DNA of 64,000 nucleotides, taken from Rubripirellula sp. (GTDB taxonomy: Bacteria; Planctomycetota; Planctomycetia; Pirellulales; Pirellulaceae). Within the stretch, counting starts at the first letter, position 1. Each line of letters starts with the position of its first letter. The notes under the pieces were generated by a model. That model saw only the letters and a list, made by a program, of their open reading frames with translations, had not been told where the DNA came from and searched no databases. Position numbers and translations under genes: made by a program. This document shows positions 9,617 through 62,258 of the stretch, piece by piece. Location of the stretch: assembly GCA_965216875.1 (NCBI GenBank), contig OZ244207.1, forward strand, positions 1,184,001 through 1,248,000, written 5' to 3'.

Positions 9617-10963
9617 CTACTTCGCCTGCAATTCGCTTCTGTGTTTGCCGCCGTTGTCTTGCAGGTACTGGGCGAGTTTTTTGTGTTCGGTTTTGCCGAC
9701 GACTCCGGTGCAGTAGTCCAGTGGTGTGTAGCCTTTGCCTTCTCCGGGCCAACCGTCGTCTCTGGTATCGTTGACGTCGGCGCCGAGTTCGATGAGTAAC
9801 TTGGTCGCTGGCAGGTTCCCTGCGATGGCACAGTGATAAAGGCCTTCGATTCGACAGCCCTTCCCAACCAGATAGCGAATCACCTTTTCGTAATCCCAGT
9901 GGCGATAGGCATGCTGCCAGATCGCGTTGCTTAGGGGCGCGTCTCCGCCGGCGTGAATATCGCCTCCGAATTCAACCAACGCTCGAAAGACCTCGTAAGA
10001 GCAATATTGCTCCGATGCCATTTCGAGAGCCGTGTAGCCTTCGGAGGTTTCGAGGTTGACGTTCATCCCCTGTTGAACGAGGACACGGATCAGCTCGGCC
10101 GAGTTGCATTTGAGTGCCAGGTGCAATGGCGTGTCGCAGTAGGCACCCTCGAGGCGTTCATGGATGACGTTGGGATCGTTCTTGGCCAGTTGGATGGCCT
10201 CTTGCGTTTGTTTGAGCACGATCGCGGTCATGAATGGCGATCCCGCAGCTCCGTTGGCGACGGCGACTTCTCGCAGCGCCTTGCTGCCGGACGTGATGTA
10301 GGCACTGTCTCGGCGAACGTCGGCGCCGTGGTCGATCAACAGTTGAGCGATCGCGTTGCAGCGTTTGGGGACGTACATCAACGGTGTGTGACACGAATCG
10401 GCCTTGGCACCGTGGGGCAAGGCGTCAGGATCGGCGCCGCCATCAAGCAATGCTCGAACCGAACGCAGGTCGCCCGCGATCACCGCATAGTGCAGCGGCG
10501 TCAATCCGCAATAGGGAAGGTCGTTGTAGAAACCGCGATCACCGGTCGGGTCAGCCAATCGAATGCTTCCTTGTGAAGGATCCGATTCGAGGATGGCTTT
10601 GACCGCCTTGGAATCGCGTCGCCAGATCGCGTGAAAGATCGGCTGCTCGCAAACGCCTGCCAAAATCATCGCTTCGACAAGCTGGTTGCGATCGGCTGCT
10701 TTGAGTCCGTCGCGACGAACGATCATTTTGACTGGCCAGTCGTCACTGTGGTTCATGACGAAAACATTGGCGCCAAGTTCAATCAGTACCTTGGCCGTTT
10801 CGATTTGCTCTTTGCCAAGCGCCTTGATGAGCGGGCAATTGATATTGCTGTCCGTGATATTAAGGAGCGACTTGTCATCGGTGACGAGTTTCAAAACGAG
10901 CTTGGTGTCGCCAGCTTTGGCTGCGCGATAAACCGGTTCGTATTTTGGGTCGCCGTCACTCAC
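9617..10963 (-). CDS. ankyrin repeat protein
   Basis: Repeated TPLH/TPLM/TALE motifs with LL..GADxN turns. Confidence 0.9.
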   Translation of the reverse strand: MSDGDPKYEPVYRAAKAGDTKLVLKLVTDDKSLLNITDSNINCPLIKALGKEQIETAKVLIELGANVFVMNHSDDWPVKMIVRRDGLKAADRNQLVEAMILAGVCEQPIFHAIWRRDSKAVKAILESDPSQGSIRLADPTGDRGFYNDLPYCGLTPLHYAVIAGDLRSVRALLDGGADPDALPHGAKADSCHTPLMYVPKRCNAIAQLLIDHGADVRRDSAYITSGSKALREVAVANGAAGSPFMTAIVLKQTQEAIQLAKNDPNVIHERLEGAYCDTPLHLALKCNSAELIRVLVQQGMNVNLETSEGYTALEMASEQYCSYEVFRALVEFGGDIHAGGDAPLSNAIWQHAYRHWDYEKVIRYLVGKGCRIEGLYHCAIAGNLPATKLLIELGADVNDTRDDGWPGEGKGYTPLDYCTGVVGKTEHKKLAQYLQDNGGKHRSELQAK

Positions 10964-11093
10964 TTGTTCACCTCTTTGCTGAGCACATCATAAGCGAATG
11001 CACGCATTTCGTTGCTCGCTTGGGGGGCCTGAATCGTGACCTAAGCTTGCTCGAAGCATTTTCAAAAGGTATGCCCAAATCGGACGCAAGCTG

Positions 11094-12617
11094 ATGCGCA
11101 CTGTCAAAATCGTTCTTATCGTACTCGTCGCTGTCTTTGTCATGATTCCAATGACTGGAATCGTGTTGCTTACGGCAATTGCAGCGGTCGGAGCGAACGC
11201 AAACGAGAAGTTCGAAGAGATCAATGCAACTCTGGTCACTGCGAGTTCACCTGAGCTGACAGGGCCAAGAACCACGGTTGGGAACGTCACGCTTGTCAGC
11301 GATGCGTCGATTCCCGAGTTTCAAGTCAAGCAAGTGGCCGAAACGTTGGCGTCGAAACTGCTGCTTGGCTCAAGCGAGATGGACCATCTCTACCGCATGT
11401 CGGCCAATCGAAACGGATACCGACTGACAAACCTCACGCGTATGGCGACCGAAGGCTGCGAGCAGTTTCGACCGATCAACGAGTTCGTTGCGACGATCCT
11501 TAGTTTTGAGTGTTTTGATGGCGGTCAAGTCGAAGTCGTTTCGCTGCCGAACAACGGAGCGGGCGAATTCGTTTCGACCAAGCGAGCTGACGTGGTTACT
11601 TGTTGGGTCGATGAGATCAGTAGCGTCTTTTTTGGCCAAGAAGAGACCGAGGAAACAATCGCAAACGTGGTCGCGACCATTCGCTCGACCGGTTTGCTCG
11701 AGGATGGCCAACAACCAAAACACTTCTTCTTGCGACGAAGCGATCAAGGCGGCGAGATTTCATTTGTGAGTGCTGCCGCGGCGGTGGATCAAATCGATCC
11801 CGAAGTGCTTAAGGCAACGATGCGTGAACGTGCGTTGATGTTGAGTTTGACGTTGTTCGATGGTGCGCCTTGCAAGTTCTCGCTGACCGGTATTGGCTTT
11901 GACGAACTGGCATCTTTCGAGCACGATCCGCCGTTCCAGGCTCGATGTGCGTCGCGAAACGGATGCATGTTGGTCTTGTCTGACGGCACGGTGTCGCTCG
12001 AAGCAGTCGAGGCAATCGCCGCCAAACTAATGAACTTTCCAGGACGTGAACTAAAGATGGATCTTTGGGTCCGCAGCGTTGACGGCAAGAACACCGTGTT
12101 GGTGCCACTGCTGCGCGGCGACAAGCTTGACGCCGAAACCTTCCAGATACTGGAACATGTCAACGGCATGACCATCAAAGGAGAATTGCCGCTTGACCAA
12201 TCTCTGGAGATGGTTTGCTGCGACCTGGAGTTCAAAGAGTATCGATCGTTTTCGGTTGAAGACTACGTGGGGCCGACGATCATTCGAAACAACAATCGGC
12301 TTCACTATTGGTACCCGTTCGAGGAACCCTTTGCCAACGAAGTCGCCGACTACCTTGAACGCGAAGGCGTCTTTACGGACCAGCAATCGTTTCGATTCGA
12401 AATTTTCGGCTCAGAAGATCCTGCAGAACCACCGATGATTCAGGTCTACATTGACCCTCAAACGCTCGATGCCAAAGGGTACGAGATCTTCGAAACCTTC
12501 GGCAGAAAGATGATGGCCGACCTTTTCGCTGAGCAAACGGTTCGGTTTCGGATTGTCGATATGCTTGGCCAGACCGTGAAGTCGTTCACTCAGGAAGGCA
12601 TCGCCCCGGCCGAGTAA
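11094..12617 (+). CDS. hypothetical N-terminally membrane-anchored protein
   Basis: 507-aa ORF with a long hydrophobic N-terminus. Confidence 0.75.
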   Translation: MRTVKIVLIVLVAVFVMIPMTGIVLLTAIAAVGANANEKFEEINATLVTASSPELTGPRTTVGNVTLVSDASIPEFQVKQVAETLASKLLLGSSEMDHLYRMSANRNGYRLTNLTRMATEGCEQFRPINEFVATILSFECFDGGQVEVVSLPNNGAGEFVSTKRADVVTCWVDEISSVFFGQEETEETIANVVATIRSTGLLEDGQQPKHFFLRRSDQGGEISFVSAAAAVDQIDPEVLKATMRERALMLSLTLFDGAPCKFSLTGIGFDELASFEHDPPFQARCASRNGCMLVLSDGTVSLEAVEAIAAKLMNFPGRELKMDLWVRSVDGKNTVLVPLLRGDKLDAETFQILEHVNGMTIKGELPLDQSLEMVCCDLEFKEYRSFSVEDYVGPTIIRNNNRLHYWYPFEEPFANEVADYLEREGVFTDQQSFRFEIFGSEDPAEPPMIQVYIDPQTLDAKGYEIFETFGRKMMADLFAEQTVRFRIVDMLGQTVKSFTQEGIAPAE

Positions 12618-41875: not shown

Positions 41876-41896
41876 GTACACCCCAGAGGATTCGAA
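41876..41896. repeat. att core, distal copy (tRNA-Arg 3' end duplication)
   Basis: GTACACCCCAGAGGATTCGAA identical to 62184-62204. Confidence 0.95.
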
Positions 41897-42203
41897 TGCG
41901 CTCGACGATTCGCGATGCGATGATTCGCACGACGCGAATAAGGGAGCGGAAAAGGGGACACCGGCTATTGAAGAGAGTGAATCGATAGTGTTGACCCGCG
42001 CTTGGGAAGTCGACATCGTGCACATTGTCCAGGCACTTTCTGATAGCGCGCTGTGCGATCTCCTGGCCGTCGCGCGAGGGCTTCTTCGAACTGAGGAAAC
42101 GTCCAACGACTAAGTGTCCATCCCACCACGGTTTCGGGTGTCTGCCACGGTGGCACACTCTTGATCATGCTTGAAATGCCGCCAGAACCATCGAGATAGA
42201 GCC

Positions 42204-43886: not shown

Positions 43887-44077
43887 TCCATGTTTTGTGT
43901 TTCGACTGATCTCATTCTCAAGAGTTGTTGTCTGCGATCAAGCCTTCAGTTCCTATCTGTTGTTGATTTCTTGAAGTTGTCGTTTGGAAGTGTGCCACAG
44001 TAGCAGAGTCTGTGGCGGGAGGTTGGCAAGCGCACCTTCGATTCGGTAACAGCGCACATCCACAGCGAGCATTGACC

Positions 44078-44692
44078 ATGAACGAGACCACCCACGAAAT
44101 TGAAACAGGGGATCGACCTGAGCCGGATCGAACGTATTCGGAACCTCATCGCACCTGCCGTTGGTGCAACACATCGAAGCCGATAACGGAGTACCGCATC
44201 CAGTCGCGCGAGCCTGACGGCAGGGCTTATCGTTCGCACCAGTGCCGCCAGTGCCACAATCGTGTCGAGCGAGAGCGTTCAAGACGCAAACGAAAGGATC
44301 AAAGAGACCGTCGCATCCACTCCAAGTTGGCCCTCGTCGCCCGCGCCAAGTCCCAGCGCCGTTGTGTTGCCGCCCTGGCCGAGTCACTCCTCGAAGGCTT
44401 CGGGGGCGTTGAAGGCTTTGCAAAGGCTTGGACCGAAGCCATCACAGAAGCCACCGCTTGTAAGCGGATCCGAGCTGGTGAGGCTCTCGTCGTTTTCCTT
44501 CAATGGCTCGAAGAGCATCCCGAGGTAACCATGGATATCAGGACAGCGTCGGATGAGGAGCTCGAACGAGCCTACAGGGACGCGCTTGCAGCCGCTTTTA
44601 TCGAGTTTCTGCGTGATCATCGGGGAATCGCGACCCGACTGCTCGCTCAGTCAGGATTCGTTGAGGCTGAACCGTCAAACGTCGTGGAATAG
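44078..44692 (+). CDS. Zn-finger protein (CxxC...CxxC) of unknown function
   Basis: CRWC...CRQC, basic helix, FGGVEGFAKAW, TASDEELE. Confidence 0.75.
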   Translation: MNETTHEIETGDRPEPDRTYSEPHRTCRWCNTSKPITEYRIQSREPDGRAYRSHQCRQCHNRVERERSRRKRKDQRDRRIHSKLALVARAKSQRRCVAALAESLLEGFGGVEGFAKAWTEAITEATACKRIRAGEALVVFLQWLEEHPEVTMDIRTASDEELERAYRDALAAAFIEFLRDHRGIATRLLAQSGFVEAEPSNVVE

Positions 44693-46257: not shown

Positions 46258-47700
46258 GTGGTCGAGCAGGCCCACCGGAGATCCGACAATGCCCCAAAAA
46301 AAAGGGGGCTGCGCGAGATGGTTAGCGCAGCCCCCGAGCAGTTTGATCCGACAATGCTGATACCGGAGTTTCAAATGATTATGGGTTGTGACGCAAAAGA
46401 TTCAAGCCTTGCTCCCAACTCGAGCAGCCAACTTGAATCCGAACCGGCGAAGGCCTATCAAAGGCTCAAGGTCGAGCCTGAAGGAGCTCCAGTTGGACAT
46501 CATGTTGCAGTTCATCGCGACCTGCTTGATTGGATGGAAGACCACGTACAGAACGATGACGTGCGCCATGAGCTTACGCTCTGCTTTCAGACCTACATGA
46601 GAGAAGGACAATTCCTGATCAACCAAAAGCGGTTTGGCCACGGTTTTGGCGGTACGGCGACGAAGGCTCTTCGGACAGCTCTTGGCAAGTGCCCCTTCGT
46701 CGAACGCTTGTCCGAAGGGATCCCGGGAGTATGCTCGAGCGAATACCGATTCCGGCTTCGAGCGATTTCCCGCAATTTGCGGGGCAAAACGTGGTCACCA
46801 GATAACGGTATCCTCCTGTTCTCGGTTCCTCCCGGATATTGCCGGTTGGTGCGGGTGCCTTCTGACTGGATGGCCCATCGAGCGTCTAGATGGGTTCAGT
46901 TCTGTGCTAAGCGTGGTCTTCCTCTTCCGGCTGATTTGCGTGCCGACTCCCCGCTTGCATCGGCTACCTTCGATGCGATCCGGCGCATTTGTGTTCCCGC
47001 CGTCGTCGATGCTACGGGCGTCGTGTGTGCCGAAAAGATTTCTTTCCTTCTTGAATTTCATAAGTCATTGCTTACGAAGAGGGTTCGTCGCAAGTACTGC
47101 GCCAAGGACGGCAGGACCTATCACGCGATAACCAATTGTCCAAGGGTTCTCAGACGTCAGCTGCTCCTAAATGGCGAGCCGTTGCGTGAGGCTGACCTAA
47201 GCTGCTCGCACTTCTACCTATTGGCGACCCAGATAGCTGATGTCGATGAGCGAGACCGACTGCTAGAACTCATCCGTTCGGGGCGCTTTTACGAGACCGT
47301 CGCGGAACTCTCGGGTGAAGAGTTCGTAGATCGAGCGGAACTGAAGCAGGAAATGCAACGACAGTGTTTGTTTGGGCGAGACGGGCGAATCTCGTCGCGA
47401 CCTTTGTGGCCTGCTCTACGGAAGGTCTCGCGGCAGCTCTGTAGCCTAATCCTTCGCTTAAGGCGGGGCTTCGCCAAGAAGAACGCCTCTAACTTTGCCA
47501 AGCTAATTCAACGGCTAGAGGGCCGTTTAATGGATGATGCCCACTACAAACTGATTGAAGAAGGCATTGATGGTATTCGGCTCCACGACGGGTTTCTTGT
47601 CGCTGAAAGCAGTATCGATCGCGTTGCCCAAATCATTAGAGATGCTGGCGTGAAGGTCTTCGGCGCAGAGCCCAGAATTGGGATCAAGACCGGAGATTGA
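46258..47700 (+). CDS. PolA/T7-superfamily palm polymerase without exonuclease or helicase domain (TV-Pol-like)
   Basis: DGRTYH; motif A EADLSCSH; motif B RAELKQ...LFG; IQRLE; motif C RLHDGFLV; start uncertain (46258/46318/46351/46375). Confidence 0.75.
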   Translation: MVEQAHRRSDNAPKKRGLREMVSAAPEQFDPTMLIPEFQMIMGCDAKDSSLAPNSSSQLESEPAKAYQRLKVEPEGAPVGHHVAVHRDLLDWMEDHVQNDDVRHELTLCFQTYMREGQFLINQKRFGHGFGGTATKALRTALGKCPFVERLSEGIPGVCSSEYRFRLRAISRNLRGKTWSPDNGILLFSVPPGYCRLVRVPSDWMAHRASRWVQFCAKRGLPLPADLRADSPLASATFDAIRRICVPAVVDATGVVCAEKISFLLEFHKSLLTKRVRRKYCAKDGRTYHAITNCPRVLRRQLLLNGEPLREADLSCSHFYLLATQIADVDERDRLLELIRSGRFYETVAELSGEEFVDRAELKQEMQRQCLFGRDGRISSRPLWPALRKVSRQLCSLILRLRRGFAKKNASNFAKLIQRLEGRLMDDAHYKLIEEGIDGIRLHDGFLVAESSIDRVAQIIRDAGVKVFGAEPRIGIKTGD

Positions 47701-47897: not shown

Positions 47898-48320
47898 ATG
47901 CAAATTTGCATACCCAAACACCGAAGTTACACCGACCCACGATTCATTAATGACACTTTCAGACACGATTCCAGACAAGATGTTTCGACGAAACCTGGGA
48001 ACTCTGCATCTCCAGCAGCTTGCGCGGCTTGGTATTGGCTCGCACAGTTTGACGACAAGGGACTGGCCGACAAGTCGATCGGGATTCTCTCCGGGAGCCT
48101 AGAGGCGATGACCACATCCCCCTTCAACAAGTGCCGAGAGTCGCTGATGAACTCCCGAGCGAACAAAAGGAAGCTCACTAACGATGCCCAGCTCAAACTC
48201 CTTTGGTCGGCCTGGGAGAAAGCGAAGGCCGGTAAGACCGTGAAGGCACTTCGGCCTGTAAAGCAGATCGCATGTTGCGACGCAGCCTATTACGCCTTAA
48301 AGAGGATCCGAGATCGATGA
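47898..48320 (+). CDS. hypothetical protein, possibly a truncated phage-type gene
   Basis: 140-aa ORF coupled to the next gene by ATGA overlap; N-terminus doubtful. Confidence 0.5.
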   Translation: MQICIPKHRSYTDPRFINDTFRHDSRQDVSTKPGNSASPAACAAWYWLAQFDDKGLADKSIGILSGSLEAMTTSPFNKCRESLMNSRANKRKLTNDAQLKLLWSAWEKAKAGKTVKALRPVKQIACCDAAYYALKRIRDR

Positions 48321-48874
48321 TCAACGTTGTCCACCCAGGCAAAGTAGCCCGCCTCAAGCAGCTCGAAGGCGTCGTCGAACGAGGCAAAAAGACGTTCGTG
48401 AAAGTCGGCAACGCCTTGAAAGAGATCCGCGACCAGGAGCTGTACAAGGTCACGCACAGGAGCTTCGCAGCGTACGTGGAAGATCGGTTCGGATTTAAGC
48501 GACACAACGCGTATCACCTGATTCAGGCTGCTGAGGCTAGCGATTCTGTTAAACACGTTCAACATATTGAGAATGCTCGCCAGGCGGCTGAAGTCGCGAA
48601 GGCTCCCGCCGAGCACCGCGATGCGGTTGTCGAGCGAGCAGCCGAGATCGCTAGCGAACGCGACACCAAGCCAACAGCCAAGATCATCGCCGAGGCACGC
48701 GACGAGATCATCGGCGCCAAGCAGGGCTCACCGATCGAAGCTGCACCGCGAACCGACCCGGTAGAGGCCCTGGCGGCGATCGTTCGAACGCTTGAAACCG
48801 ATCAACTCGTTGCCATGCGGAATCTGATTGATTCAGTCCTGGGCGAGGTGAACTCAAGCGGAGGGAAGTGCTGA
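48317..48874 (+). CDS. phage-type HTH protein (DUF3102-like)
   Basis: LEGVVERGKKTFVKVGNALKEIRDQELYKVTHRSFAAYVEDRFGFKRHNAYHLIQAA. Confidence 0.75.
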   Translation: MINVVHPGKVARLKQLEGVVERGKKTFVKVGNALKEIRDQELYKVTHRSFAAYVEDRFGFKRHNAYHLIQAAEASDSVKHVQHIENARQAAEVAKAPAEHRDAVVERAAEIASERDTKPTAKIIAEARDEIIGAKQGSPIEAAPRTDPVEALAAIVRTLETDQLVAMRNLIDSVLGEVNSSGGKC

Positions 48875-50712: not shown

Positions 50713-50838
50713 TCAACTAACGATTGCGGGGGAAAGCTAGGACATCACTCTACGCGTTGCATTATCACTGATTCATCCGGCGCCGCGGCGGACACATCGA
50801 CCCAATGCAGTACGCCGCTCCGTAGCGAAAGGGAGGTT

Positions 50839-51327
50839 TTGACGATCATGGTCCAAGCAAAACTCATCCAGGGCCACCTCTATTACGACTGCGGCATTCG
50901 TCAGGTCGAGGAATCGGATCCACACGTTATTGACGTTTGCACCTGGAGATACGACGGATTAATGAGAGGCGAGCGCACGTCACCAGATTGTGATCAGCCA
51001 TATCACTACCATCAGTTCACTGAGTACCGGTCCTATTTGTATGGTCGCAACAAGCCTGATTCGGAACGGCGTTATACATCCATTAGGTTTCCTTCAGAGG
51101 AGAAGGCCTTGGATCGAATGTTGGACTCCAATGCGTTCTACGTAGAGCTAACTGGTGCCTTCGAAGAGCTTGGCTTTATGGAGACATTAGCAAAGGACGA
51201 CACCTGCATGTCCTGTGGCACGCCCCATTGCGAAGCGGTCATTTCCGGGCTCGGTCACTACTACGTGCTATGTGACGACTGCTGCAAGACCGCGCTTTCA
51301 GCATTGCCCGGCCTGCGCACAGGGTAG
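50839..51327 (+). CDS. hypothetical protein with C-terminal CxxC...CxxC
   Basis: GGAGG RBS (start 50839 or 50848); CMSC...CDDC; homologous fragment at 39729 differs mostly at synonymous sites. Confidence 0.75.
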   Translation: MTIMVQAKLIQGHLYYDCGIRQVEESDPHVIDVCTWRYDGLMRGERTSPDCDQPYHYHQFTEYRSYLYGRNKPDSERRYTSIRFPSEEKALDRMLDSNAFYVELTGAFEELGFMETLAKDDTCMSCGTPHCEAVISGLGHYYVLCDDCCKTALSALPGLRTG

Positions 51328-51468
51328 AGCTTCACCTTGCGACTCACGCCCATCCTGCGGCTAGTGGTCTTATCGGCGATCGTCCGGGCGTTTGAGGCTG
51401 ACCAGCCGGTGTAAACCAGGCTGCGATTGGAGCCGACGTCCCAGCCAAGAAGCCGATCTCGACTTTGC

Positions 51469-51483
51469 GTGCCACTGTGGCAC
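51469..51483. repeat. island palindrome GTGCCACWGTGGCAC
   Basis: Exact GTGCCACTGTGGCAC. Confidence 0.95.
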
Positions 51484-51703
51484 ATATGTACCGACCGTAC
51501 CTCCTCCAAGGCCCAGTCACGACGAAGTTTGCGGCATAGCCACTGCCACGTTCAGTTTGGACGAACCGACACGCTTCTAGGGCGTCGACGCTCCGCTTAG
51601 CTACTGTGCCCGAACTTGCCAGGTGAATCTCTTCACCGCCTTGATGGCCAAACGCCGAACAGTAGGATGCTCGCTCCAGCGCCGCTGTTGCGAGGGCGCC
51701 AGG

Positions 51704-54700
51704 TCAATCCTGTGCAGATTCCCTTCCTTTGGTGATGTCCCAGCCGAGATAATCCGAAAGCGAGTCCACTGTGGCATCAATCTCGTCGTTTGCAACACCA
51801 GCATGATGAGCCGCGGCCTCTATATGTTCACGTGCCACCGGCTGGGAGACGTCCCTTTGAGAGATCCAATAGAATTGGCGATCAAAATCGTCCAAAAAGA
51901 CGAAGCCTCCAAACGCCGAGTGGTTAGCGGCGGTAGCCACCCAAATACTGTTGGGGACATTGGGCAACGATGGTTCTTCTTGCAACTCTTTGCTGAACGC
52001 GCGCGTTAGCGATCCAGTTAACCCCGATTGGTAATTCCAACTTCCCATGAATCCCTTAAACCAATCTCGCCAGCCCTGAGATTTGCAGTGCTCGAAAGCT
52101 AGGCCTCTTGCATGTCGGAGGAAGCCCATGATCACCGCTCCACGAAGCTCATGACTTCGTTCAAAGGGGACGAAAAGGCGGTTCGCTGCTGGTTCCGGAG
52201 CTAGCGTGCCGTAGACATCGATCTTCGCAGAAAGGCCCAAGTCCGGGAGCCACTCTTGTCGCGTTGTACCCATGACTGCATCCCACGTATGAAGACCACC
52301 GGGTGCTTCGATACCAAACAACGAAAGCTGATACGACGACAGCATATTCGGCAGGTGGTCGCTCTGATCTAGGCAGCCTCGTTGACGCCAATGATCGAAG
52401 AGCTCCTGGAGACTGGCGTGCTGCAGTTTCGCGACTTCCTCTCGATCGTCGAACCAGAATCCTCTTGGGGCAGGCTGACTAGAAGCTACAGTCTCTATCG
52501 CCAAGTCAAGGTCGCCCTTTGCGAGGACTTCAAAATCGGAAGGTTGGACGTAATCGTCTTCATGTTGGTCTCTATTAAACGCGTCAAGAATCGTTTCTAG
52601 ACTGTCGCTAGAGTCTCGCACCTTTTCCAGCAAGACGACTAGTTCGTCTTTGTCTTTCGGAAAGGCTGGAGGCGAAACAACTCGAACGCCGTCGACGTTG
52701 CCTTCATGACATTGAGTGAATTTGCTGCTAACCAGGAGATTCCCATCCACGTCACTGGACCTGACGTGATACCTCGCGAGCTATCACCAAGACGATGGGC
52801 GCATGAGCCACCATCGTTCGAATTTGAACCTTTTGTTGAGCGGAAGCCAGCATGGACGTACTGTCTAACGTCCTCTGTGTTCGACCTTTCCCGTTACCAC
52901 GAGAACCTTCGTGGGCAGGGGGCAATCTACTTCTTGTCCGGCGAAAACGGTAAGCCCGCAATAGCAACTGGAAACCTATACCTTCGGGGAGGACGCATCC
53001 AACAATCACATTTCATCTACTCGTTGCGCAACATCATCCATCACAAGAAAGACGGTAACTTTGGTCCCAGAATAACTCGGTGGCGAATCGGACTCAGGAT
53101 CTTTAGGAGAGCAATATGCTGGAAACTCCACCAAGTCAGCTTCAGGGAGTTCCTCGATTACGAAGTATTTTGACGCGCCTTCAATCGTCATACGTAGCGG
53201 TCTGGAACCGTACTGAAATGTTTCGACAACAATTCGGTCGCCGCCGAGGAAGCAGGAAAGGAACCCAATCCCAAACTGCGAGCAGGCCTCTAGATGAATG
53301 CCCATCTCCTCCAAACGCTCGCACTCAGCCGAAAACTCAGGAGAGCGATAGAAACTCTTTCCGACTTGCATGAAGAAGTTCTCGACCTGATCAAGGGACA
53401 TTCCAATCCCGTTGTCGCGAAACTCGATTCGTGGGCCCTCGTCTGGATTGCTAGCCACATGGGGCAAGCCGCTGCCGTCCCAGACTTGGATCCGCGGTAC
53501 GTAATTGACCGGCTTCCCCTGATGGGAATGTGCCTCCGCCCGCGCTTGCTGGTAGCGGCAGGCGTCGAGCGAGTTTTGGAGCAGCTCCCGTAGGAACATC
53601 GTCTCGTCCGGGTAGAGACTCTTGTCCATCAAGAGCTTCATAATCCGTTCGTAGTCCAGCTGGAATCGGAACCCTCCTGCGACGAATCGAGGGTCGGCCA
53701 TATTCACTTGGTAGCGATCAACGATGGGCGCGAGCCTCAACTGGTACCGATCCGCCATTTCGTTTGGGAGCTCCCGAACGAGCCTAGTTGCGTCCTGCAA
53801 TTCGCGGTCGACCCAATCGAGATAGGCGTGGACCGCAACATAGTCTTCCGGAGTCTCGCAGTCAGCGATGAACTCGATCCTTTCGGTAGTAACATTGACG
53901 CCTTTGATGCTTAGGTGTTTGTTCCATTCGGCAATCGAGATCGACTCGGTGAAGTGAATTGAGTGAAAGGCCGAGCATGGAGTGCGAGTGCGATCGAAAT
54001 CTAGGATGTCACCTAGGCGTAGGCAGCAAGCAAGATATCGAAGATTGATGCGTGTATTGCCCAAGTGGTCCGCGTTGCGCATCCGCAATACGCATTGCTC
54101 TGGCTTTCGTGGATCTCGAGACTGGCGTACGCCCCAATTGTGGCTTTCGCAAAGGATGCCGATGTCCAGCGTCAATGTCGCTCCCCGAAAACGTAATCTC
54201 TCCGCAAGATGCGACTGGATGAATCTGTGTACTCGCTCTGCATGGCGTTGACGAATGAACTCAGCGAAGACCGCGTCGCGAACGCAATCTGCTTTGACCG
54301 TCTCGCCATTCCTTTCTGCCTGGTCGGCGTCATCAAGACGCCCGCGATTGTGCCGGCAATGCGACTTGTACTCGTCAGAGTCGAGGATCGCCTGTTTTTC
54401 ATCAGCCTCGGATACGAACATTCCCACATCGTGGAGCAAGATCGACAACCACTGAAAAGCTAGCTCAATCGCGTTGAGTTGGATCGACTCTGGCTCATGG
54501 CTCTGACGAGGCAGAAAGTCGTGGACATGACCAGCAACGTTGAGCAAGTGGTCGAGGTCGTGCTTTGTGTACTGTCTGAACGTATGTTGAATTCGGTCGA
54601 TGAAAGGCTCCACGACGTCCGAAACCTCGAGCACTAGGCCCTGAAGCTGCTTGACCTCCGCTCGAGTCACCTCTTCATAGTCGTGAAGGTTGTTGAACTG

Positions 54701-54742
54701 CTGAAAGAGCCTGTGACTCTCGATCGAATCTCGGAAACCCAT
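51704..54742 (-). pseudogene. HD-domain (HD-CE-like) + HSP90-like GHKL ATPase gene, interrupted by an internal inversion; 1012 aa when restored
   Basis: YTKHDLDH, LLHDVGM, ESH, RLGDILDF; LRELLQNSLDA, DNGIGM, FGIGFLSCF, GTKV; as assembled it gives a 578-aa and a 348-aa ORF. Confidence 0.82.
52658..53044 (+). other. inverted intragenic segment (387 bp; 402 bp if crossover is within GTCTTTC/GAAAGAC)
   Basis: Stop-free + strand frame RKGWRR...TLSEFAANQEIPIHV...RNIIHH joins both flanking minus-strand ORFs in frame when flipped. Confidence 0.8.
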
Positions 54743-54857
54743 GCCCGCCCCTGACGCTGCTCTCGGTGTTGCAAGTCCCGGTGGGACTGCTCGTGGGAGT
54801 ATTCTACGGAATGGTTTCTGCGCTGTCGTGGTGCCGCGGCTTGGGCCGGTGAAATGT

Positions 54858-54872
54858 GTGCCACAGTGGCAC
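54858..54872. repeat. island palindrome GTGCCACWGTGGCAC
   Basis: Exact GTGCCACAGTGGCAC. Confidence 0.95.
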
Positions 54873-55408
54873 TATTGGGCCGGAGGTAAATGAACGGTCG
54901 GTCGATGCAAACGACTTGAGTTCAGGGAGAGCCAAATTCCCGTCGGTGTCACCAACCAGGGAAATTCAGTGATTCGGCGTCGGCCATCGGAGCATCGAAT
55001 CGACAGTTGGTAAGTCGCTTAAAAACTGCCCTACATATGGCATTCAACCATTGATGCGTCGTTCCGGCTTCGCTGCCGGACGGGCTCCCCTCGGCTTGGG
55101 CCGAGGCTTCGCTACGCTCGGCCTCCACACCGGCTGCATCCATGTCCCGAAGGCACATTCGCGGCGACCATCCATGAGTCGCCGTGCCTTACGGAATTTC
55201 GTCACTCGATGCGTAGGGCGTCACCGCCCGCGCTCGCTCCGACGTGAGACATCGTCTTTTACTTAGTTGACATTCTGCGGGAATTTTGACGTGATCTCCG
55301 CTGCTCATTGGAACATCTACCGAAGTTCCGGCGGCGTGGCGACATCTTCTCCTTTGGCAACGGTTTCTACGCCCCCGCTATCCGGCACCTGCTGAGGCAG
55401 AATCAAAA

Positions 55409-56827
55409 ATGAAGCGCAAGTGTGGCGTTCGTTTACAAATTCCGATTCACGTAAAACGCTACTGCGGGGGAAGCCGAACACGAGAATCTCCAATACAATG
55501 CACTTTGCATACGACCAAACGTGAATTGAAAGCACATCTAGTGACCAGGGCTGACCGAGTATGGCCGAAACCTCGAAGCAGAAATGTGGGGTCCTTTGGC
55601 AATCTTGAACTCTACGCTGGAACTCTGTTTCTCGCGGAATCAGAGGGGACAATCACACAATCCACACTCACGTCTGATGAGAAAGGGCTAGGCCAGCGCC
55701 TACGCGGCTTACTTTTGGTTCAACGCGTGACGCCCACGACTGCGGGTGATTTGATTACTGAGCTTCAAGCTTACGAGTGGATTCAGCGTCAAGACACTTT
55801 TCCAAGAAGCTATTCATTGACACCCGATGGTGTCGCTGCAGCCCAAATTGCGAAGACTGATCGACACGGTTTCCGGCGGTTGTTGCTCATGAAAATGCAA
55901 CAACGCTTTGTAGTGCCAGGCTGGTTCGTCGATCGTTTGCACACGATAAACCCGCACGGTGGTGATGTTGTCCTTCCAGGACCACGCCCTGGTTGGCGGC
56001 CAGCAGTATGCCAACTTGCAGACGATAAATGGCGAGAAAGTCTTGAGAGTGAGGTTGCAATATCTCATGAACACAATACTGCGACGATTGATAACGCATT
56101 CCCGGTACCGCTTGACCGATGGATACGAGAGGTGAAGCGCGAGTGGGCTGATTTCAAAATTACCCGATCAAAAAGCACGACGTATGCGCCTCGTGGACGA
56201 CTTGCAAGAGCAATGAGAAGAGCCGCAATTCAGTTGCTCTTCAACAATAAACCGTTTGGATGCAGCTATCACACTTCAGATCAGTCAATGCATCCTGTTC
56301 CACCACGATCGTTCCAGTCGTGGTGCCCGCTACTGGATGCACTGGAACTGATCGGCTACACCGACGCACATCCGGATATCATGGGACGGCTTATTTTTCC
56401 ATGTGCCGCCTTTCGGCGTACCGTGAATGCAGAGGAATTTGAGCGAACGGAAATTAGATCACCGGACGCCAAAGTGTTGGTTATAAACCAACCCAAATGG
56501 TCCGAGAACATGGCTGGAGTCTTCAACAATACGCTTTGGAACGTTTATTCTCGTTTCGCAAAGAAAGTTCGGACGAGATACATTTCAGTTCAAGATGTGC
56601 GTGACGAAGTCTGCAGACAGCTGAGATTAAGCTCACTTCTGTTTGACACATTTCTTGAAAAAACCGTTCGCCATACAGCAACTCGCAAGGACGAGACCGG
56701 AGGTATTATGATTGCACTTGAAAGTGATTTACAACCAAAGCAACAAACTGGTAGCGGTCTCCTGCGGCGTCCGGTCTACATGGATGGAATTGCTCACTCC
56801 TTGATATCAGTATCTGTAACCCAATAA
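55409..56827 (+). CDS. unknown protein with wHTH-like regions; gene 1 of operon
   Basis: LITELQAYEWIQ...YSLTPDG and YISVQDVRDEVCRQLRLSSLLFDTFL; true start may be GTG 55541. Confidence 0.75.
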   Translation: MKRKCGVRLQIPIHVKRYCGGSRTRESPIQCTLHTTKRELKAHLVTRADRVWPKPRSRNVGSFGNLELYAGTLFLAESEGTITQSTLTSDEKGLGQRLRGLLLVQRVTPTTAGDLITELQAYEWIQRQDTFPRSYSLTPDGVAAAQIAKTDRHGFRRLLLMKMQQRFVVPGWFVDRLHTINPHGGDVVLPGPRPGWRPAVCQLADDKWRESLESEVAISHEHNTATIDNAFPVPLDRWIREVKREWADFKITRSKSTTYAPRGRLARAMRRAAIQLLFNNKPFGCSYHTSDQSMHPVPPRSFQSWCPLLDALELIGYTDAHPDIMGRLIFPCAAFRRTVNAEEFERTEIRSPDAKVLVINQPKWSENMAGVFNNTLWNVYSRFAKKVRTRYISVQDVRDEVCRQLRLSSLLFDTFLEKTVRHTATRKDETGGIMIALESDLQPKQQTGSGLLRRPVYMDGIAHSLISVSVTQ

Positions 56828-56843
56828 CAACCAAGCGAAGACC

Positions 56844-58223
56844 ATGACAAATCCGTTGCTGCGACGTGGCAAGGAAATGCCGATTGACAAGTCTGCTCGC
56901 TACGCGAAGCTTGGACTTACCGATAACCCGTTTCCTGCAGAACCGACCGTCTCGCCAGATCATCCTGATCCACGTCGGAATGGGAGCATATATTGCGAGA
57001 CACTTCACGAAGATAAAATGCAGAGTTTTGAATCTCTGCTTATCGCACGATCCGAAGGTCCAACGGTTCGACCTCTCGTTTTTCTGATGGATCACACCAC
57101 GGCACGAGGCCGCGGAATTGGAAAAACTGCGTTTCTAAATAGACGACAGAATGAAATTTTGCGGGACTTTGGAAGCGCGGCTTCGCGAGGCGACGAAGTT
57201 GTGTTCGCCGTTCACATCATTCCTCCGGTGAATCCAGAATGCAGAAAGTTTTGGGAACTCACTCGCCTAATCTGCGATCGCTTGATTGATCGAAATGTCA
57301 TTCTTCAAGCAGTGTGCCGTCTTCGGGCCACATATCCCAAGATGCCAGAAACCGTTTTTGAGGAAGTTGGTGAAATAGATGAGTGGCCAGAGACTATTGG
57401 AAGCGATGACTGGCTGCGAGAACGTCGAGTTGACCGACATGAGCTAAATCGCCACGTTAGACAGCAACTCTACAAGGCGGGCGTGCGTGACATGGTTGCT
57501 GACAAAATAGCCGCCAACGGAAACAATCGTGCGGTACTACGGTCATGGTTGTTCTCGAGCATGAAAATCACGACCTGGCGCAAGGAGGGGCCGCAAATCG
57601 TATTTGACGACTTTGTTAAAGTATTCCGAGCTGCTGGCTTTACGCGAGGATTGCTGTTGATCGACGAAATGGAGAAGATCGTAAGGCCGCAGAACTCGAC
57701 GGAACGGCGCAATTTTGTGGAAAGCCTAAGGTACTTTCTAATTGATGGAGACTGTGAAGCAGCCCGAACTGGGTTTTACGGAACCGTACTGACGATTCAC
57801 CCAGGAATCCAAGAGCTCTTACTTCAGCATTGGCAGGTCACGGGCCTGGATCGGTCCGCTCCACTTCATGAGCCAGACGTAAAACAGAATGAGATTTCAT
57901 TTGGTCCATTGAGTCGTGAGCATGCAGATTTGTTAGTACAGGAATATTTAGGCCATTATGGAAAAGATACTGCATCGACGGGAGTATCGCCTTTCACGAA
58001 GGAGGCAATTGACGCTGCACTAGTTAAGTCTCGGCACGTGCCTGGGCCGATGCTGAACCTCTTGTTCAATGCAATAGAAAGAGCGGCAGAAAGAGGTGTC
58101 GAGAGTATTGACGGGCCTTTTATTGAACAGCTTTACGACGAACGAAATCAGCATGGAGAAGCCCTCGTTCAGCCCGATCAGCTTCCTGCTCCACAGACAC
58201 TCCTGATGGATGAAGAAGATTGA
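56844..58223 (+). CDS. P-loop ATPase (AAA+-like); gene 2 of operon
   Basis: GLTDNPF, Walker A ARGRGIGKT, Walker B LLLIDEME, lid-like PFTKEAIDA...PGPML. Confidence 0.88.
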   Translation: MTNPLLRRGKEMPIDKSARYAKLGLTDNPFPAEPTVSPDHPDPRRNGSIYCETLHEDKMQSFESLLIARSEGPTVRPLVFLMDHTTARGRGIGKTAFLNRRQNEILRDFGSAASRGDEVVFAVHIIPPVNPECRKFWELTRLICDRLIDRNVILQAVCRLRATYPKMPETVFEEVGEIDEWPETIGSDDWLRERRVDRHELNRHVRQQLYKAGVRDMVADKIAANGNNRAVLRSWLFSSMKITTWRKEGPQIVFDDFVKVFRAAGFTRGLLLIDEMEKIVRPQNSTERRNFVESLRYFLIDGDCEAARTGFYGTVLTIHPGIQELLLQHWQVTGLDRSAPLHEPDVKQNEISFGPLSREHADLLVQEYLGHYGKDTASTGVSPFTKEAIDAALVKSRHVPGPMLNLLFNAIERAAERGVESIDGPFIEQLYDERNQHGEALVQPDQLPAPQTLLMDEED

Positions 58224-58657
58224 CTGACGAAGGATCGCCACTTGATTTTAGATTGCTGTCAGAGCGGGCCGTGACCGATTCTTTGATCGAATCGAAAGAC
58301 GCCGATTCGTATGGATCGCTGCGAGTTTGTCCTATTGGTCGCCTACTTTTTGTCGTCGAAGGAATAAGAAAAAGCGCAAACACTGCATCCGGGTTAAACG
58401 AAATACGAGAAGGGCGGACCGACTTTCACAGCATTCAAGCGTCTGGCGGCTTGTTGGTTGCTGGCGTGACCTCTCAGGATGTTTGCGATCAAATGTTTCA
58501 GCCCGAAGACGACTATGAATCCTGCAGTATATCCGAGAAAGTCTTTGGACGCGGTCTCTCTCCAGATGTAACGACCGATTTGCTCGCACTCGCATCGTTT
58601 GATCGAAAATTCGACGCGGAAACGACGCGTCAATACGAAGAGGCTAGTGATGCGTGA
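58220..58657 (+). CDS. acidic hypothetical protein; gene 3 of operon
   Basis: TTGA overlap with the ATPase stop; overlaps the PIN gene start. Confidence 0.7.
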   Translation: MTDEGSPLDFRLLSERAVTDSLIESKDADSYGSLRVCPIGRLLFVVEGIRKSANTASGLNEIREGRTDFHSIQASGGLLVAGVTSQDVCDQMFQPEDDYESCSISEKVFGRGLSPDVTTDLLALASFDRKFDAETTRQYEEASDA

Positions 58658-59171
58658 CCTAGTTTTCGATGCGGATCATCTGCCTGAGCTTCTTGGCCAG
58701 TATTTTGATCCCACCGGCGTTAACAGAGGATATGGAGCATTCGCCCCCTCAGACGCGTTTTCAAGGCCGCTCGCTGTTGCACTAAATCAAATATTGGCGG
58801 ACTGGCGAACGTGTATTTCCACTGACACCCTACCTTCTTCGCTAGTCGTTATATCCACATTCGCTTTTATTGAGCTTGGCAGAAAGTGGGACCAGATGGT
58901 TGACGGGCGATTTAGTCCGAGCCAGTGTCGTGCTTTCACGGCTCAGCCGCCAACGTGGGTGAGTATCGCTCCGCTCGATGAGGATTTGCTACCTAGTTAT
59001 TGTGACGTACCTCAGGCCGTCACACTCGGCAACGGAGATACCGTTCCAATTGAATGGACAGACGCCGTCCACGTAGCAACAGTTCTTTCAAGGGAAGAGA
59101 GCACACTCTTGATCTCTGGCGATCAAAGGCTCTCGTGTATTCCAGATATTGCACATCGAGTAATGACATAG
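58650..59171 (+). CDS. PIN-domain ribonuclease; gene 4 of operon
   Basis: LVFDAD, AFIEL, WTDAVHVATV, LISGDQRL: the four acidic PIN positions. Confidence 0.82.
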   Translation: MRDLVFDADHLPELLGQYFDPTGVNRGYGAFAPSDAFSRPLAVALNQILADWRTCISTDTLPSSLVVISTFAFIELGRKWDQMVDGRFSPSQCRAFTAQPPTWVSIAPLDEDLLPSYCDVPQAVTLGNGDTVPIEWTDAVHVATVLSREESTLLISGDQRLSCIPDIAHRVMT

Positions 59172-59635: not shown

Positions 59636-59914
59636 TCATCGTGTCGCGGCCAGCGCGTCAATCACTTGATCCGGACGGAACCTCCTGCAGGTGCCGATTT
59701 TGATCGACGGGACCTCCTCATTGCGGACGAGCTGTTGGAGCTTCGACCCACTAATCCCAAGCCGTCTAGCCATCTCATCAGCGTCAACGAGGAAGTGCTC
59801 ATCTGGCTCCCGGGCGTCGGTCTGGTCGCGCCGTCGCTCGATCTCGTCGCAGACCATTGAGACGAACTGGTCGATCTCGACGCCCTGAAGGAAGATCTGC
59901 TGTCCTGTTGCCAT
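59636..59914 (-). CDS. excisionase-like HTH protein (HTH_17 type)
   Basis: LVDADEMARRLGISGSKLQQLVRNEEVPSIKIGTCRRF; AAGGAG RBS. Confidence 0.85.
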   Translation of the reverse strand: MATGQQIFLQGVEIDQFVSMVCDEIERRRDQTDAREPDEHFLVDADEMARRLGISGSKLQQLVRNEEVPSIKIGTCRRFRPDQVIDALAATR

Positions 59915-60059
59915 CACTAGCTCCTTGGTACACGGTGGCTCGTACTTGCACCGACCGATCAAGCGATGATCTCACAGTGTCGTTGCAGGTAGTTTATCGG
60001 TGAAGCCTCCGTACCGGCCGGGAAATCAGATTGGATGGTGGGGCTTGGCCGAGGCAACC

Positions 60060-60803: not shown

Positions 60804-60915
60804 GTTGTGCTGCTGAGGTCCCGCCGTTTCACGCGGCGGGGCCATTTGGCCTACGCGTGTGCGAAAGAGGAGGGTCCGGAGGCTCCATCGATAACCTTTG
60901 CAGGAGGAACACCGC

Positions 60916-62258
<1,343 letters not shown>

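Follow-up and report, generated by a model that had tools for sequence, protein, structure and literature searches.

A 64,000-nucleotide stretch of Rubripirellula sp. DNA (contig OZ244207.1, positions 1,184,001 to 1,248,000; hereafter the window), part of a complete chromosome of 8.26 Mb, carries at positions 51704-54742 a gene for an HD-CE + Hsp90-like protein that is broken by inversion of an internal segment of 387 base pairs (bp), 52658-53044. The intact orientation survives in a close relative and is ancestral, and the broken gene is otherwise undecayed. A single recent inversion, arising from an error of replication or repair, probably knocked out what had been a stand-alone gene on an integrative island. 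That the loss was a one-off event of some kind, whether through such an error, through an off-target enzyme or as a truncation that kept a function, is very likely.

In its present state the locus reads as two open reading frames (ORFs) on the reverse strand, one of 578 amino acids (aa; 53006-54742) and one of 348 aa (51704-52750), and a stop-free frame on the forward strand (52643-53173) encloses a 129-aa piece. These frames are as the initial annotation described them, and its proposal that flipping 52658-53044 would repair the gene holds: inversion in silico yields 1012 codons with zero internal stops. The alternative it offered, a 402-bp exchange within a flanking 7-bp inverted repeat (GTCTTTC 52652-52658, GAAAGAC 53047-53053), likewise gave an open 1012-codon frame when recomputed. 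An open frame also resulted from 2,632 of the 14,400 breakpoint pairs tried near the junctions, so the frame alone does not fix the ends of the inversion, and was rejected as evidence for exact breakpoints; homology does fix them. In the other direction, random inversions of 387-bp size introduced a premature stop in 3,000 of 3,000 trials.

The intact gene falls into three natural pieces. Piece 1 (codons 1-566; 53045-54742, reverse strand) covers the whole of the HD-CE domain (residues 55-316) and the greater part of the Hsp90-like ATPase N-domain; its reading frame now continues through 12 foreign codons to the stop at 53006, which gives the 578-aa ORF. The inverted segment (codons 567-695; 52658-53044, forward strand, the other two pieces lying on the reverse one) gives a profile match at E 2.4e-29 and, as placed via a structure model of the closest homologue, P0002, would code for the final helix and strand of the Hsp90 N-domain together with the beginning of the middle region. 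Piece 3 (codons 696-1012 plus stop; 51704-52657, reverse strand) holds the rest of the middle domain, with a loop bearing a family-invariant Arg, and a helical C-terminal part. The start codon and upstream region are untouched, and GC skew suggests that transcription of the gene runs head-on to the replication fork. A scan for promoters and terminators returned chance-level signals only.

Homologues place the breakpoints with precision. A search with the N-terminal part returned 625 relatives, and the three pieces were run as separate queries against the best 119 (the gene itself excluded), 107 of which are at least 900 aa long. The middle piece was matched by 53 of the 119, the last by 107 and all three by 50, with the pieces in order, within the set tolerance, in 47 of those 50; among the homologues of at least 900 aa, 106 of 107 matched piece 3. 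Identity in piece 1 to the 20 closest homologues is 60-72%. Most telling are the full-length homologues nearest to the gene, 22 proteins of 1005-1031 aa with HD-CE and Hsp90-like ATPase domains, every one of which matches all three pieces in order: the match to piece 1 ends at residue 566-569, the 129-aa piece starts at the next residue and piece 3 follows. Alignment across both junctions, which the initial annotation had proposed as a check, is found in 22 of 22. The breakpoints 52658/53044 preserve the Leu that closes the strand GTKVTVFL, a position occupied by Leu in 26 and Phe in 1 of the aligned homologues (n=27). Crossing over in the 7-bp repeat leaves a gap at a residue that all 27 possess, and an extra residue at the second junction, which argues that the repeat was not the crossover site.

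The same picture emerges from a survey of 86 homologous loci. The middle segment is detectable in 38, on the gene's own strand in 38 of 38, and the same strand test detects the window's segment as inverted; the remaining 48 loci are cut short, deleted there, or belong to subfamilies with a different C-terminal half. Searched against 1.84 billion representatives, the 129-aa piece found six matches, three of them family members (P0010, P0008 and P0123), with alignments to two full-length members over residues 565-688 and 570-706; the other three, all repetitive proteins, were set aside as chance. Among 200 genomes of the same family the 129-aa piece had no match outside G000, and a comparison of the island DNA with five chosen relatives gave a single short repeat match.

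Sequencing runs supply both orientations of the gene. Runs X1-X4 represent one sample, S1, and X1 and X4, which share that sample, are probably the source of the assembly; X5 is an algal metagenome from another study. X4 (depth 340) and X1 (depth 111) each yield, by independent assembly, one 13,434-base contig over 50000-55181 with 0 differences and no joint, spanning both junctions in the broken orientation and showing no other junction, and the share of 374 sampled words is 1.00 in all four runs of S1. In X5, by contrast, a relative of 50796-54993 with about 2-4 differences per 100 letters (96-98% identical) has the intact arrangement. In one contig (depth 40), 52657 is linked to 53044 on the opposite strand through a 2-base overlap with nothing inserted; a second (depth 28) runs from 54483 to 53045 on one strand and continues into 52658-52682 on the other. 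The X5 relative thus carries the intact orientation, joined at the ends of 52658-53044 with a 2-bp overlap, and its joint 52657/53044 agrees with the homologue alignments in confirming that the inversion is real and has the breakpoints first proposed. The broken allele is genuinely there in the DNA, with the intact form ancestral to it, and no sample shows more than one orientation. The proposed check of orientation, made on contigs, showed broken junctions only in X1 and X4 of S1 and intact ones only in X5; contigs drop rare variants, so a small flipped minority would escape notice.

Other runs add little. Run X6 consists solely of 151-base fragments at a depth of 2-7, and one of them crosses the broken left junction without difference; these are probably carry-over from the same strain and were not counted. 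Run X7 has a 0.09 share of the sampled words, and eight runs with the same species label have almost none. Within 52683-52970 of the inverted segment the X5 contigs break and depth drops to 10 (vs 28-40), which suggests more than one strain variant there; since X5 contigs pass through both junctions, the dip does not look like mixed orientations. Synonymous to non-synonymous differences stand at 11:9 (20 codons from 40 of 137 difference rows), counts that are too few and not polarised.

The encoded protein belongs to a recognizable family. Its HD-CE domain matches PF24391 at E 6.6e-48 (164 bits vs a cut-off of 27) with the invariant residues H61, H65, H104, D105, D245 and D248 all present, and is the sole HD-CE copy in the genome; piece 1 also matches HATPase_c_3 (E 0.0015), and a profile match to HtpG stands at E 3e-17. 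A fold search with the HD domain gave a cyclic-nucleotide phosphodiesterase as its best match (Z 11.6, root-mean-square deviation (rmsd) 4.7, 228 aligned), and cyclic-nucleotide phosphodiesterases, PPX/GppA and SpoT all fall at Z 8-12, with no clear winner and hence no substrate call. The P0002 model (predicted local distance difference test, pLDDT, 88) fits Hsp90 N-domains over residues 359-612 (Z 19.3, rmsd 2.4, 188 aligned) and the N and middle domains of TRAP1 7kcl over 369-921 (Z 22.7, rmsd 4.0, 333 aligned), and on this modelling the intact gene, and only the intact gene, would encode Hsp90-type N and middle domains. The earlier description of a predicted conflict gene combining HD and Hsp90-like parts is in keeping with these domain matches and model fits. 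The family-invariant Arg is kept at residue 855, in piece 3, in a loop that presumably recalls the Hsp90 catalytic loop, and a weak match to wHTH-HSP90_Na-assoc was seen in the homologue P0004.

The first breakpoint corresponds to residue 574 of P0002, near a domain boundary, and the 578-aa product stops short of the final helix and strand of the N-domain and has neither the middle domain nor the C-terminal part. With the end of the ATPase N-domain and everything beyond it cut off, the gene is probably dead. It has nonetheless not decayed: 193 of 203 near-invariant residues are retained, where the eight closest homologues miss 0-13. This lack of decay indicates that the inversion is recent, and it may date from culture. 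Identity to the eight closest homologues falls from 58-79% over residues 1-565 to 17-54% beyond, a drop that fits a variable C-terminal sensing part.

A defence role for the family remains a prediction, since no PADLOC model matches it and few homologous loci have defence-type neighbours. Hsp90-like conflict proteins with an N-terminal HD phosphoesterase were reportedly described by Nicastro and colleagues in 2023 in NAR. The Tiamat preprint presents this architecture as a predicted defence family in which variable C-terminal domains sense infection and activate a nucleotide-hydrolysing effector (10.64898/2026.09.30.754977; also 10.64898/2026.10.19.760177). No relevant paper came up in a literature search for HD-CE or for its Pfam names, and term searches of the accessible text of PMC8195603, PMC7159879, PMC11090510 and 10.1101/2022.07.19.500537 found no passage on HD-CE.

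Family members of this kind are often lost. Frameshifted homologues occur at L003, L016, L023, L048 and L058 and deletions at L013 and L066, some of which may be assembly errors. At L013 (5992-7917, P0102), for instance, an in-frame deletion of ~350 codons starts just after the ATPase N-domain strand, and two short homologues, P0091 (568 aa) and P0090 (566 aa), end about where that deletion starts, near the present truncation. L047 has a second, separate HD-CE gene (10292-11797) on the opposite strand, 2.8 kb from its HD-CE + Hsp90 gene. A set of 114 neighbouring ORFs from 32 homologous loci includes a single recombinase, an IS110 transposase, and no serine recombinase, and neighbours are not conserved.

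What the junctions hold bears on how the segment came to be flipped. The crossover may lie anywhere within a 2-bp overlap, TT at 52656-52657 on the left and AA at 53045-53046 on the right; 16% of random clean inversions have an overlap of 2 bp or longer. The 7-bp inverted repeat that the initial annotation saw flanking the segment does exist, but it is offset from the true crossover and of a length expected by chance: an inverted repeat of at least 7 bp occurred in 336 of 2,000 pairs of 60-mers drawn at random with a spacing of 387 bases. In the junction-equivalent 60-mers of 34 homologous genes the longest inverted repeat is 4-8 bp, reaching at least 7 in 7 of the 34, each time with a different sequence. 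Homologue alignment, the X5 joint and chance length together rule it out as the crossover site. What speaks more for these ends is a gapped, imperfect inverted repeat of the outer flanks, with 14 matches in 18 columns and two 2-base gaps, that ends at the breakpoints. Its left arm (52641-52656) abuts the left breakpoint and includes six of the seven bases of the 7-bp repeat; its right arm (53045-53060) is, in the intact allele, also the 5' arm of a hairpin with a 7-bp stem. Against 3,000 random pairs, its local score was reached by 0-0.4% and its duplex energy by 2-5%. That hairpin (-4.6 kcal/mol) places one breakpoint of the intact allele in its loop and exceeds in strength 97% of the 24-mers of the gene as well as each of the 34 homologous sites, and a second hairpin adjoins the other breakpoint.

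These features suggest a route by which an error of replication or repair could have inverted the segment. The small hairpin at one breakpoint would stall or expose the nascent strand, the imperfect repeat of the outer flanks would let that strand pair with the opposite strand 387 bases off, and the strand would then copy the segment backwards and return, a four-point switch of type '1-3-2-4' that produces an inversion without a new repeat. Alternatively, the same ends may have been broken and rejoined at the 2-bp microhomology, a course that sequence does not distinguish from a template switch. The resulting 578-aa product would keep its HD phosphohydrolase and lose the N-domain end, the Arg-bearing middle domain and the C-terminal part, such that the switch could no longer work. 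For the intact protein, the mode of action most likely to apply is the one predicted by published models, in which case the C-terminal part would sense infection, the Hsp90-like ATPase would change shape and the HD domain would hydrolyse nucleotide. Loss of such a costly accessory gene may have been tolerated or even favoured, possibly in culture. Of the three options that the initial annotation left standing, one-off inactivation is the best supported.

Several points weigh against a single error of this kind. A span of 387 bp is long for a template switch, and the inversion is perfectly clean, with an overlap of 2 bp, which is what a serine recombinase would produce (and what chance produces at the frequency given above). 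The imperfect repeat is 1-3 bases out of register with the crossover, so it cannot have hosted a simple crossover within it, and the p values given for it were calculated once the sequence had been seen, over four flank lengths and three measures. Loss of rare variants from contigs makes flipping in a few percent of cells compatible with the data. Finally, the homologues compared are at most 72% identical, and only one close relative, that in run X5, was seen, with flanks retained and gene intact.

The strongest competitor, though an unlikely one, likewise posits a one-off event, in which two sites of poor likeness were joined by a topoisomerase or by one of the genome's serine recombinases, enzymes that make a 2-bp staggered cut. 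The bases are exactly conserved and the TT/AA overlap has the right polarity for inversion, as such an enzyme would require, and the genome has four PF00239 matches, two of them large serine recombinases. All four lie at least 0.58 Mb from the gene, however, and 16% of random inversions have such an overlap. The sites themselves lack the symmetry of recombination sites: dyad symmetry about the overlap amounts to 0-6 of 14 matches, left and right sites are identical at 9 of 30 positions, and the four junction 30-mers find their best matches elsewhere in the genome at 20-24 of 30, none at a recombinase locus. A search of the genome for an IS110 recombinase and for Ku found neither.

Less probable still is the ON/OFF switch listed by the initial annotation, here taken as a programmed, reversible intragenic inverton of the premature-stop type that would keep a costly defence gene off in part of the population. 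Both orientations do occur in near-identical DNA in nature, the gene shows no decay apart from the inversion, the cut lies close to a domain boundary, and premature-stop intragenic invertons are documented, some at ~100% one orientation (PMC10028968). What tells against it is that each sample shows one orientation, at depths of 111 and 340 (broken) and 28-40 (intact), that the crossover lies outside the 7-bp repeat, that no site symmetry is seen and repeats are not conserved, that none of the 38 loci is inverted, and that no invertase is found in the island or beside the homologues; the thiC repeat characterised in PMC10028968 is 11 bp, vs 2 bp in register here. A variant of equally slim prospects would be an immune-sensor switch at unconventional sites, a breakpoint hairpin loop plus an out-of-register repeat, flipped at low rate by a trans-acting recombinase. 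Cells would then toggle between the full HD-Hsp90 sensor and a truncated form, invisibly to repeat-based inverton finders, and the immune gene would contain a phase-variable switch operated through sites of a new kind.

It is more doubtful again that selection, after a one-off inversion, has kept the 578-aa product as a functional HD-CE enzyme that is uncoupled and either always on or in a new role. Its HD-CE domain is complete with all invariant residues, its start codon and upstream region are as before, and P0091, P0090 and the L013 deletion have their ends at a similar point. Set against this, the other eight short homologues end elsewhere and most of the 119 are at least 900 aa, part of the N-domain fold is removed, an always-on nucleotide hydrolase should be harmful, and pieces 2 and 3 are undecayed, which leaves no time for selection to show. 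An assembly artefact in an organism with an intact gene is hardly credible: the frame restores cleanly and the DNA preparation is not independent, X1 and X4 being one sample, but same-sample contigs at depths 111 and 340 span both junctions without difference, which refutes misassembly for the sequenced sample.

If a replication or repair error is indeed the cause, the state of this gene matters little in itself, as one more accessory defence-type gene lost by mutation. It is nevertheless a well-documented specimen, with both alleles known at base resolution, and a natural null allele of a predicted immune family with a recoverable intact partner. The breakpoints have no in-register repeat, so callers that depend on repeats would miss this inversion.

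The gene sits in a 20.3-kb integrative island (41876-62204) bounded by 21-bp direct repeats (41876-41896 and 62184-62204) that equal the 3' end of a tRNA-Arg (62183-62258, reverse strand). The island encodes a tyrosine integrase (60898-62211, forward strand; Pfam PF00589/PF13102, phrog_1, phrog_66), the only recombinase found in it, and an excisionase-like helix-turn-helix gene (59636-59962, reverse strand; HTH_17); a search of the island for serine recombinases (PF00239) found no match. Tyrosine integrases exchange strands over 6-8 bp, a poor fit to a 2-bp overlap, and the island integrase is an unlikely agent of the inversion. Among other island ORFs are an endonuclease VII/HNH-like gene (44012-44692), a 480-aa replication-like gene (46258-47700, phrog_4756) and a 200-aa phage-type ORF (48272-48874); a scan of 18 island ORFs gave no match to a capsid or terminase. 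Four tightly packed low-GC genes at 55409-59171 (472, 459, 145 and 190 aa) form a candidate undescribed defence operon, in which the second (459 aa) is a P-loop ATPase with a weak BrxC/D match (E 0.038) and the others match no Pfam, PADLOC or PHROG family. The non-coding stretch 55033-55377 is 77% identical to genome positions 644172-644541, in another island, and 75% identical to a stretch in a same-genus genome, and is a possible repeat element or RNA.

A 15-bp palindrome, GTGCCACWGTGGCAC, has seven exact copies in the genome, all in the island between gene modules (44840, 46227, 48916, 51469, 54858, 59602 and 60060), plus a one-mismatch copy at 42142. Two copies flank the HD-CE gene as a 19-nucleotide inverted repeat, one downstream (51469-51483), away from the inversion ends, and one 116 bases upstream of the start codon (54858-54872). 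Neither is at a breakpoint, and the stretch shared with X5 (50796-54993) extends beyond both, so we discarded the palindrome as an inversion or cassette boundary. It occurs in 4 of 200 family genomes vs 6 of 200 for a reversed control pattern, in one case close to an integrase remnant and in another as two copies ahead of a large ORF; an island protein probably uses it as an operator or binding site.

Among known systems, the closest parallel for the presumed mechanism is the template switch. Events of the '1-3-2-4' type, in which a fragment is inverted and nothing more, account for 45% of 794 human-chimp events (10.1101/038380). Like the events described there, the present one is an in-place inversion with no base gained or lost and no new repeat, flanked by imperfect inverted repeats and explicable as a single event; unlike those short-range events of primates and yeast, it spans 387 bp in a bacterium, its arms are not homogenised, 2 bp are in register and the mechanism is deduced. 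The premature-stop class of intragenic invertons, exemplified by thiC BT0650 and BT3786 in Chanin et al. (PMC10028968), offers a second comparison: there too the inversion lies wholly within a gene, creating a premature stop and two predicted ORFs. Those invertons flip between inverted repeats found by einverted, usually with both orientations in a clonal sample, whereas here the crossover is outside the repeat and each sample's contigs show one orientation. The present inversion is thus wholly intragenic, as an inverton's is, without crossover in inverted repeats or conservation or recurrence of the site in relatives. In a search of the literature that combined intragenic inversion with defence terms, none of the papers listed contained the phrase 'intragenic inversion', which is no proof of absence in print.

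Serine invertases of the Hin/Gin/Cin type carry out conservative inversion with a 2-bp overlap. The present event shares both features, including an overlap of inversion polarity, and differs in having no 26-bp dyad sites, two dissimilar sites and no invertase gene nearby. The restored protein, for its part, resembles HD + Hsp90-like conflict proteins in domain order (PF24391 + HATPase_c_3 + PF24410), in a length of ~1010-1030 aa, in an N-terminal half that is conserved, at about 62-72% identity to the eight closest homologues, and a C-terminal half that evolves fast, at 17-54%, and in being encoded by a stand-alone gene found in varied settings; unlike them, the present copy is broken. The case is best classed as a spontaneous inversion affecting one member of a catalogued, predicted-defence family.

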